53,129 nt of DNA. It comes from an uncultured Planctomycetia bacterium. Lineage in GTDB: Bacteria > Omnitrophota > Gorgyraeia > Pluralincolimonadales > CAZUZR01. A program made the position numbers and the translations under genes. A model generated the notes under the pieces. It searched no databases. It was not told where the DNA came from and was given only the letters and a program-made list of their open reading frames with translations. Below, piece after piece: positions 639 through 1,052 of the stretch (the first letter of the stretch is position 1; the number at the start of each line of letters is the position of its first letter). The stretch lies in NCBI GenBank assembly GCA_964625025.1, contig CAZUZR010000001.1, forward strand, positions 1,456 to 54,584. The letters are read 5' to 3'.

Positions 639-1052
639 TCATTTTTCAAGAAAATCAAACCTCGATTCGTATTTAGTAGATAACGTTACAAATTTCTTCT
701 GATTATTCTTCGCTGGCACGAGCCTCAATTTATATCCACCTTTATCGGCACCAGATAAAGGAATAAAATAGATTTTCTTTTCTTTATCATAGTAAACGGC
801 TATTATATCGATATTGCTATCGGTATAATGAATAATATTATAATTATTAGAGCTTCTAAATCGAACTTCTAAAACGCCGTTTTTCGGCGTTACGTATTTG
901 ACTTGTATTCTCTTAAAGATGCCGTTCTTCTCGCTAACTAAATCGTAACGAACATCTTCGCCCCAGGGAATAAGCACATTAAAGCCGTTTTGTTTCAAGG
1001 CATACATAACATATGCTTCCGCTATATCACCTTTTTGTTTTGAGATAGCCAT
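639..1052 (-). CDS. PD-(D/E)XK endonuclease of the I-Ssp6803I-like family (homing-endonuclease-type), free-standing
   Basis: The 137-aa product has KGDIAEAYV..L..NGF.V..PWGEDVRYDLV....G...RIQVKY, then ..SSNNY...HYT...IDIIAVYY....IYFIP and KLRLVPAKNNQKK. This pattern matches the small PD-(D/E)XK family that includes the tRNA-fMet intron endonuclease I-Ssp6803I (Pfam PDDEXK_5, from memory). The stop codon is 3 nt from the tRNA-Thr(UGU) 5' end. Confidence 0.6.
   Translation of the reverse strand: MAISKQKGDIAEAYVMYALKQNGFNVLIPWGEDVRYDLVSEKNGIFKRIQVKYVTPKNGVLEVRFRSSNNYNIIHYTDSNIDIIAVYYDKEKKIYFIPLSGADKGGYKLRLVPAKNNQKKFVTLSTKYESRFDFLEK

Follow-up and report, generated by a model that had tools for sequence, protein, structure and literature searches.

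A free-standing PDDEXK_5 endonuclease gene at the tRNA-Thr(UGU) locus of Omnitrophota, a probable mobile insertion independent of the adjacent tRNA-Tyr intron

Introduction

To our knowledge, PD-(D/E)XK homing endonucleases are represented essentially by one intron-encoded cyanobacterial enzyme, and intron-independent spread of free-standing homing endonucleases is documented mainly in phages. Here, we examine a relative of that enzyme in a bacterial chromosome: a free-standing gene for a 137-amino-acid (aa) protein (positions 639 to 1052, minus strand) in a 53,129-nucleotide stretch of an Omnitrophota contig (CAZUZR010000001.1), which we call the window. The gene lies beside a tRNA cluster in which tRNA-Tyr is interrupted by a group I intron. 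We consider it probable, at about 0.6, that this gene encodes a homing endonuclease and uses intronless homing to spread at the tRNA-Thr(UGU) locus, independently of the tRNA-Tyr intron.

The founding member of the family, I-Ssp6803I, is encoded in the tRNA-fMet group I intron of Synechocystis (PDB 2OST). It is a tetramer that recognizes a 23-bp pseudo-palindrome (PMC3384342). The window protein shares with it the Pfam family (PF11645, PDDEXK_5), the fold, an unusual D...QxK motif, a similar size (137 aa versus about 150 aa), and a physical association with a tRNA gene. However, the two proteins are only ∼25% identical, and the window gene does not lie inside an intron. The tRNA differs as well, being tRNA-fMet and its anticodon loop for I-Ssp6803I but the 5' edge of tRNA-Thr(UGU) for the window gene. 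Being encoded in an intron is a trait of the founding member and not of the Pfam family.

The genomic setting recalls the free-standing Seg and Mob endonucleases of T-even phages, one of which, SegB, is encoded in the T4 tRNA gene cluster. Like the window gene, these are intergenic, tightly packed, stand-alone genes that can be located in tRNA clusters, are polymorphic in presence or absence between related genomes, and have flanking markers inherited with them (here, an allele of tRNA-Thr). Unlike the window gene, which encodes a PD-(D/E)XK enzyme in a bacterial chromosome, they belong to the GIY-YIG or HNH families and reside in phage genomes. The window gene also adjoins what looks like an essential, single-copy tRNA gene, and its mobility is read from comparative data alone.

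Two other systems offer themselves for comparison. Collaborative homing has been described for F-CphI with the cyanophage psbA intron and for T4 mobE with I-TevIII (PMC3984707, PMC6083498, PMC2790892); in contrast to these cases, the endonuclease studied here is found, in related loci, alongside supposed targets that lack the intron, and it shows no association with the intron. The archaeal Holliday junction resolvase Hjc has a similar minimal PD-(D/E)XK core and supplies the second-best structural neighbors of the window protein. However, that match is much weaker than the match to 2OST, the window protein has PDDEXK_5-specific motifs, and its gene behaves as a mobile insertion. In the literature searched, we found no paper on PDDEXK_5 genes that stand alone next to tRNAs, and none on group I introns in bacterial tRNA-Tyr genes.

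The window gene encodes a member of the I-Ssp6803I family

The initial annotation, made from the DNA letters without database searches, had assigned the product to the small PD-(D/E)XK family of I-Ssp6803I, and both profile and structure comparisons bore this out. The protein matched PF11645 with 98 bits (E = 6.3e-28; cut-off, 26.1), passing the curated threshold across the full domain (profile positions 3 to 136 of 138), and phmmer aligned residues 3 to 120 with 2OST_A at an E value of 4.5e-10. When an AlphaFold2 model of the protein (pLDDT, 84.6) was searched with Foldseek, the top four matches were 2OST chains (E = 2e-11, TM = 0.74), followed far behind by archaeal Hjc resolvases (E = 3e-4 to 1e-2). 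The PADLOC "HEase" model also matched (E = 5e-11), and an NCBIfam search gave no match. The product is a real relative of I-Ssp6803I and a member of PDDEXK_5.

Three of the four catalytic residues proposed in the initial annotation held up well. D37 (in YDLV) and the pair Q50-V-K52 are matched by phmmer to the D, Q, and K that carry the same index numbers in 2OST and are invariant in 25 aligned members of the clade. Across 60 diverse representatives of the family, Q50 is still invariant, and D37 and K52 are conserved at ≥90%. The resulting motif, D...Q-x-K, has Gln in place of the usual Asp/Glu. The fourth residue, E12, is invariant in the clade, but phmmer pairs it with a Gln of the 2OST chain, beside a 1-residue gap. 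Candidate catalytic residues are D37, Q50, and K52, together with E12 and D9 on helix 1. The Q-x-K motif and a conserved C-terminal segment, LR..P.KNNQ.K, are specific to PDDEXK_5 in the clade and family alignments. The ratio of nonsynonymous to synonymous rates (dN/dS) is 0.05 to 0.09, which indicates that the endonuclease is being kept as a working protein.

Nearly 200 proteins are 62 to 88% identical to the window endonuclease, and those with a source name come from Omnitrophota; the closest, at locus L167 (we designate loci by L and a number), is 88% identical. The whole PDDEXK_5 family comprises ∼2,450 clusters at 50% identity (E ≤ 0.001). Several members of the clade carry the NCBI product name "group I intron-associated PD-(D/E)XK endonuclease," and several are labeled "Holliday junction resolvase-like" by JGI. 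The former name is misleading, as all 46 of the genome loci described below have the gene outside any detected intron.

The gene occupies one precise site and is present or absent among relatives

We compared two sets of loci. A scan of species-representative genomes returned 46 loci carrying the gene, and all Omnitrophota loci among them have the order pdxJ-acpS-nnrD-endonuclease-tRNA-Thr(UGU)-tRNA-Tyr-(tRNA-Gly). The second set was a metagenome sample for which the search pattern was the tRNA-Tyr 5' exon, a pattern blind to the endonuclease, to the intron, and to anything upstream. Among the 48 loci with nnrD synteny in this unbiased sample, 35 had neither gene nor intron, 11 had the intron only, and 2 had a PDDEXK_5 gene only; 46 of the 48 therefore lacked the gene. 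Most of the 46 loci without it have the nnrD stop codon, 1 nucleotide (nt), and then tRNA-Thr, with longer spacers or an overlap in some. In 17 occupied loci, the nnrD stop codon is followed after 0 to 1 nt by the endonuclease ATG, and the endonuclease stop codon is followed after 0 to 8 nt by tRNA-Thr. All carriers share this one, sharply defined insertion point.

Loss of the gene could also be traced. Locus L152 retains only about the last 31 nt, and alignment with the carrier L006 revealed sequences mostly 85 to 100% identical on either side of a ∼380-nt deletion; the gene has been deleted at least once. On a neighbor-joining (NJ) tree of NnrD and PdxJ, carriers and non-carriers interleave, and for most carriers the nearest non-carrier is no more distant than the nearest other carrier.

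The divergence of the endonuclease does not follow that of its neighbors. Mean protein identity is 72% for the endonuclease versus 58 to 60% for three neighbors, and in the pair L009-L002 the values are 79% versus 50% for the flanks. Synonymous divergence (pS) in pairs among L001, L003, L005, L017, and L099 is 0.41 to 0.54 for the endonuclease versus 0.71 to 0.80 for the flanks. The relationship is reversed in the close host pair L004-L099 (0.66 versus 0.49), in which the tRNA-Thr alleles differ. GC content at third codon positions (GC3) of the endonuclease gene is also atypical (0.26 versus 0.42 to 0.44). Vertical-only inheritance, which we considered for the conserved synteny and the 72% mean identity, was rejected as the sole explanation in view of the empty sites, the interleaving, and the discordant pS. 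These data suggest that the gene is a selfish, horizontally spreading insertion; its cleavage of DNA, the target, the mechanism of immunity, and co-transcription, all of which we infer, are taken up below. A phage vector was considered and set aside, as viral contigs held only distant homologues (≤50% identity).

Three features of the empty site were also recorded. The nnrD stop codon lies 1 nt from tRNA-Thr in loci such as L053, L067, and L075. In three loci (L076, L085, and L144), nnrD lacks its own stop codon and terminates at a TAG in the tRNA acceptor/D-arm sequence GCCGGCGTAGCT. The 3' end of nnrD (GTAGYTRA) in loci without the endonuclease repeats the GTAGCTCA of the tRNA across the palindrome GCCGGC.

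The allele of tRNA-Thr(UGU) changes with the gene

Two main types of tRNA-Thr(UGU) were distinguished. Type A has the acceptor GCTGGCG, the anticodon arm CCTCA-CTTGTAA-TGAGG, and the T arm GCCCG, and type B has the acceptor GCCGGCG, the anticodon arm GCTGT-TTTGTAA-ACAGC (and variants), and the T arm GGGGG. The window tRNA has the acceptor GCTGGTG and the anticodon arm CCTCA-CTTGTAA-TGAGG. The type A anticodon arm was found in 16 of 18 carriers versus 3 of 46 non-carriers (Fisher P = 2.7e-10), and two of these three, L152 and L051, appear to derive from carriers by deletion; L051 has a footprint resembling a stop codon plus spacer.

Moreover, when sister host lineages differ in the gene, the whole tRNA-Thr allele changes with it (e.g., L001/L155, L004 and L099/L102, and L013/L078). 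Because the two switch together, the moving unit would seem to be a cassette of the endonuclease gene plus tRNA-Thr. The allele switch may reflect co-conversion during homing. The pattern also suggests that the endonuclease cuts the other tRNA-Thr allele, with the linked allele possibly being resistant to cleavage.

The tRNA-Tyr intron is a separate mobile element

The part of the window that holds the gene and the intron is laid out as follows.

3023 to 2310, minus strand: pdxJ, an open reading frame (ORF)
2313 to 1930, minus strand: acpS, ORF
1054 to 1926, minus strand: nnrD-like NAD(P)HX dehydratase gene (Carb_kinase), ORF; Pfam Carb_kinase on orthologues, and pdxJ-acpS-nnrD synteny in all Omnitrophota loci
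639 to 1052, minus strand: free-standing PDDEXK_5 (I-Ssp6803I family) PD-(D/E)XK endonuclease gene, 137 aa; from ORF, Pfam, 2OST match, fold, conservation, and dN/dS
636 to 638, minus strand: 3-nt spacer (TAT) from the endonuclease stop codon to tRNA-Thr; from the sequence and a junction table of 18 occupied loci
561 to 635, minus strand: tRNA-Thr(UGU) of the endonuclease-linked allele type; from ARAGORN, Rfam, and allele comparison
270 to 552, minus strand: tRNA-Tyr(GUA), intron-containing; 5' exon 552-517, intron 516-319, 3' exon 318-270
70 to 1, minus strand: tRNA-Thr(CGU), cut by the window end

This layout agrees with the initial annotation, which had described a free-standing gene outside any intron, ending 3 nt before tRNA-Thr(UGU) and followed 87 nt on by a tRNA-Tyr whose intron has no ORF. 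The nnrD stop codon lies 1 nt ahead of the endonuclease ATG, and the endonuclease stop codon is the TGA at 641-639; the spacer that follows is 0 to 8 nt long and usually T-rich in relatives. No terminator was found between the endonuclease gene and the tRNAs. The two tRNA genes are 8 nt apart, and tRNA-Tyr begins at position 552, 87 nt past the end of the endonuclease ORF. Its group I intron (516-319; Rfam RF00028, 105.7 bits, E = 4e-28) is 198 nt long, too short for an ORF; it begins 123 nt downstream of the endonuclease gene, is inserted between anticodon positions 35 and 36, and has no counterpart elsewhere in the region. The exon boundaries were read off the window sequence and matched against intron-less orthologues, giving the fused exons CCAGACUGU followed by AAAUCUGG, and the fused-exon sequence of the initial annotation reads the same.

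We then asked about co-occurrence, since the initial annotation had proposed that the endonuclease might act in trans on tRNA-Tyr. Among carriers whose tRNA-Tyr could be read, the intron is present in nine (the six genome loci L002, L004, and L006 to L009, together with the window, L167, and L129). Ten other carriers (L001, L003, L005, L010 to L013, L017, L019, and L099) have an intact endonuclease gene ∼85 to 190 nt upstream of a tRNA-Tyr that lacks the intron. The anticodon arm of this tRNA, G/ACAGACTGTAAATCTGC/T, shows no difference from the fused exons of loci with the intron. An enzyme that targeted this arm would cut its own genome. As these ten carriers hold the site uninterrupted with the ORF and active site intact, the endonuclease cannot, on this comparison, be cutting the intron-less tRNA-Tyr site. 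Conversely, 11 metagenome loci have the intron and lack the gene. Gene and intron showed no significant association, irrespective of whether all loci (9/19 versus 11/46, P = 0.08) or the unbiased sample (0/2 versus 11/46, P = 1.0) were considered, an outcome that the initial annotation had itself named as refuting the link. The tRNA-Tyr group I intron is a separate mobile element, independent of the endonuclease.

An Rfam scan of 40 genome loci (L001 to L040) revealed none with the gene inside an intron. Free-standing genes are therefore the norm for the family in this sample. No intron remnant was found flanking the endonuclease gene in the window.

One junction in this region was unusual. 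In L005 (3499-3958), the tRNA-Tyr sequence is complete as far as the T arm, beyond which unrelated sequence of higher GC content follows. We left this junction out of the evidence as a probable assembly chimera, although it is possibly another insertion.

A second family of ORFs tracks the intron

Between tRNA-Thr and tRNA-Tyr, 8 of the 11 intron-bearing metagenome loci contain an unannotated ORF of 200 to 225 aa (L048, L051, L103, L106, L122, L125, L132, and L145; e.g., L132:7642-8319), and none of the 37 intron-less loci does. Every locus with this ORF has the intron (8/8 versus 0/37, P = 4e-7). The reading frame has no stop codon before the tRNA and continues through all of the tRNA-Tyr 5' exon; in most loci its stop codon lies ∼40 nt into the group I intron. 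More than 530 homologues were found, and the named ones come from Omnitrophota. Most aligned homologues end in the tail ...WAGTQVAKGxRLCKxSVLxKGRMEK, which is encoded by exon and intron and is disordered in the predicted structure.

The N-terminal helix-turn-helix (HTH) of these proteins matches phage "HNH endonuclease" PHROGs in their DNA-binding modules (E = 5e-6), and a fold search of BFVD gave weak matches (E = 8e-4 to 0.1, TM of ∼0.3), with endonuclease and LAGLIDADG proteins overrepresented among them. Among curated families, Pfam gave weak HTH hits only, and NCBIfam gave one non-significant hit (E = 0.2). Sequence searches of PDB, with single sequences and with a profile, returned no hit, and Foldseek found none in PDB at E ≤ 0.001. 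A LAGLIDADG identity, guessed from the motif ..AGIMLYWAEGT.., was not confirmed (hhalign probability against I-CreI, 0.1). By these matches, the intron-linked ORF is endonuclease-like, with no family assigned.

The intron thus tracks this ORF and not the PDDEXK_5 gene, and the pattern expected of collaborative homing at this locus fits the ORF, which would be a candidate partner of the tRNA-Tyr intron. The two systems can meet: L007 has the endonuclease, a remnant of the ORF (L007:3560-3724), and the intron together, and one 56-kb ENA contig has the endonuclease gene and the ORF, both in full. The window showed no trace of the ORF.

Relatives of the gene lie near tRNA genes in other phyla

Outside Omnitrophota, all six homologues of ≥43% identity lie ≤182 nt from a tRNA-Thr(UGU). 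In L014 (Aerophobetes) and L022 (Pyrinomonadaceae), the gene is 3 and 9 nt upstream of tRNA-Thr(UGU), respectively, without nnrD synteny; the L022 copy is possibly frameshifted, on a contig of 1.1x coverage. In L016, L018, and L020 (Gammaproteobacteria metagenome-assembled genomes [MAGs] and a Magasanikbacterium), it is 12 to 27 nt downstream of the same tRNA. The sixth is an archaeal homologue (L023, 43% identical) located 182 nt from a 94-nt tRNA-Thr(UGU) (L023:2725-2818, minus strand), which evidently carries an archaeal-type intron.

The downstream arrangement also occurs within Omnitrophota. Locus L097, with the same nnrD synteny, has a gene of a second PDDEXK_5 lineage (L097:11645-12019; 45% identical) between tRNA-Thr(UGU) and tRNA-Tyr, an arrangement matched in L016, L018, and L020. 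Two PDDEXK_5 lineages thus flank the same tRNA on opposite sides.

More distant members of the family lie between tRNA-Pro(UGG) and tRNA-His, and three of five viral homologues lie inside tRNA arrays. Quantification across the non-Omnitrophota loci gave a tRNA within 700 nt in 14 of 28 and within 100 nt in 6 of 28. By a rough estimate, a random bacterial gene has a tRNA within 700 nt in a few percent of cases.

Two further arrangements were observed among these relatives. The first 5,375 nt of L173, a 353-kb viral contig, hold a jumbo-phage homologue inside an array of 15 tRNAs with duplicated isoacceptors (two each of Tyr, Thr(UGU), Gly(UCC), Gln, and Lys(UUU)), pairs that might be sensitive and resistant alleles. 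In an Anaerolineae MAG (L025:2560-3387), two PDDEXK_5 genes lie in tandem. Their identity to the query is 35% and 39%, and a tRNA-Thr(UGU)-Tyr-Thr(GGU)-Trp cluster is located on the opposite strand, ∼590 nt away.

A model of intronless homing at tRNA-Thr(UGU) and its alternatives

On the basis of these comparisons, we favor the following model. In genomes without the gene, the endonuclease would make a double-strand break in or beside the resident tRNA-Thr(UGU). Two candidate targets stand out: the GCCGGC palindrome at the acceptor/5' edge, where the insertion point lies, and the palindromic anticodon arm GCTGTTT-TGT-AAACAGC. Repair off the donor would then copy in the cassette of endonuclease plus its own tRNA-Thr allele, i.e., intronless homing, a concept described for free-standing endonucleases (PMC3984707), with co-conversion. 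The carrier genome would be protected by the insertion itself, by the variant tRNA sequence, or by both. Because it has no terminator of its own, the endonuclease gene is probably transcribed with pdxJ-acpS-nnrD and the tRNAs, and RNase P cleavage of the tRNA would set the 3' end of its mRNA.

A bolder version is possible, and we offer it tentatively. The locus might house a drive cassette whose enzyme attacks the essential tRNA allele already in place and which brings a resistant replacement, so that the selfish gene would spread through bacterial chromosomes by exchanging one allele for the other, alongside a second, parallel pair made of the HTH-containing ORF and the intron, the intron serving as its immunity; PDDEXK_5 would then be a family of homing endonucleases targeting tRNA genes in bacteria, archaea, and phages. 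If so, two endonuclease/immunity pairs would operate independently at this one locus.

Several observations weigh against intronless homing, or limit it. The carriers are mostly species-representative genomes, and the non-carriers are metagenome contigs. Gene presence has some phylogenetic signal (nearest-neighbor same-state frequency of 0.69 versus 0.50, P = 0.016), and the endonuclease correlates moderately with its neighbors (Mantel r = 0.47); part of its history is vertical. The flank tree was built by NJ from only two flanking proteins and lacks branch support, and low GC3 lowers the saturation level of pS, so that only the strongest pS contrasts are informative. Carriers L004 and L008 have a third type of anticodon arm, type C (GCGGT/ATGGT-TTTGTAA-ACCGC/ACCAT), of a kind also found in the non-carriers L090 and L145; the anticodon arm therefore cannot, judging from these alleles, be the sole determinant of immunity. 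Lastly, a gene of use to its host could likewise be under strong purifying selection and tightly packed in an operon.

This last point leads to an alternative akin to the domesticated, merely co-transcribed nuclease of the initial annotation: an old resident of the pdxJ-acpS-nnrD-tRNA operon with a cellular function (e.g., DNA repair or maintenance of the tRNA locus) that has been lost repeatedly where dispensable. The low dN/dS, the invariant catalytic residues, the spacers of 0 to 1 and 0 to 8 nt without an intervening terminator, the synteny kept in lineages whose flanking proteins are only 47 to 60% identical, and the phylogenetic signal can all be read this way. We nevertheless regard it as unlikely, since such a resident would not be expected to be missing from 46 of 48 syntenic loci, to interleave on the flank tree, to leave a deletion remnant at a precise but polymorphic site, to differ from the flanks in synonymous divergence in both directions and in GC3, to be tied to a switch of the whole tRNA-Thr allele, or to occupy the same tRNA-Thr junction in other phyla without the operon. 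About equally unlikely, in our view, is that the gene is a passenger moved by ordinary recombination or horizontal transfer of the tRNA-Thr region, with a nuclease that drives nothing or has an unrelated target. That the switching unit includes the whole tRNA-Thr gene, and that one copy is deleted (L152) and another maybe frameshifted (L022), would suit a passenger; the strong purifying selection, the active site intact in 25 of 25 aligned clade members, the single precise insertion point, and a closeness to tRNAs far beyond that of a random gene, extending to 6 of 28 non-Omnitrophota loci within 100 nt and to viral tRNA arrays, would not.

The two explanations that involve an intron fare much worse, and none of the three readings offered in the initial annotation agrees with the comparisons made here. 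Collaborative homing, with the endonuclease and the ORF-less tRNA-Tyr intron as a pair, would account for their adjacency in the window and in L167, for the weak positive trend in co-occurrence, and for a preference like that of I-Ssp6803I, which recognizes a tRNA anticodon-arm sequence (PMC3384342). However, the ten carriers that would cut themselves, the 11 intron-bearing loci without the gene, the lack of significant association, and the perfect association of the intron with the other ORF family leave it very improbable. Just as improbable is an escapee that once resided in a tRNA group I intron and has since left or lost it. The intron-encoded founder and the NCBI product name speak for such an origin; against it, no group I intron surrounds the gene in the 40 scanned loci, no remnant flanks it in the window, and an escape is needless, free-standing genes being the norm in this sample.

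Returning to intronless homing, the evidence suggests that free-standing relatives of I-Ssp6803I form a large clade and behave as mobile insertions in bacterial chromosomes, located at the edge of an essential tRNA gene and accompanied by their own tRNA allele. If the enzyme does cleave the alternative allele, the locus would provide a natural example of gene drive, directed at an essential tRNA gene of bacteria, and the clade would be a new source of small nucleases with long recognition sites. The intron-linked ORF and the tRNA-Tyr intron would in turn be a candidate for collaborative homing outside phages, which bears on how mobile group I introns are assembled.

Other features of the region

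Downstream of tRNA-Tyr, the window departs from its relatives, which have tRNA-Gly(UCC) after tRNA-Tyr; here, ∼200 nt of non-coding sequence (269-71, minus strand; 199 nt) precede tRNA-Thr(CGU). This spacer (71-270) had no similarity to any fetched locus and no Rfam hit. L019, the closest relative of the window in the genome set, has a repeated element of ∼90 nt, CTCCATAAC.TCCCGCTATAAG...GAGCTCAATTT..GAAATTGAGCC..GTTTTG, at 3491-3600 and 3780-3880, after tRNA-Thr and tRNA-Gly, respectively; the element is absent from the window. Elsewhere in the window, ARAGORN reported a tRNA-Met(CAU) at 18845-18921 (minus strand) that was not listed in the whole-window Rfam scan at the gathering threshold. 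The spacer at 71-269 (minus strand) folds better than shuffled sequences (z = −2.97); the fold includes a long hairpin besides a perfect one of 14 bp (GUAAGGGGAGAAAC/GUUUCUUCCCUUAC).

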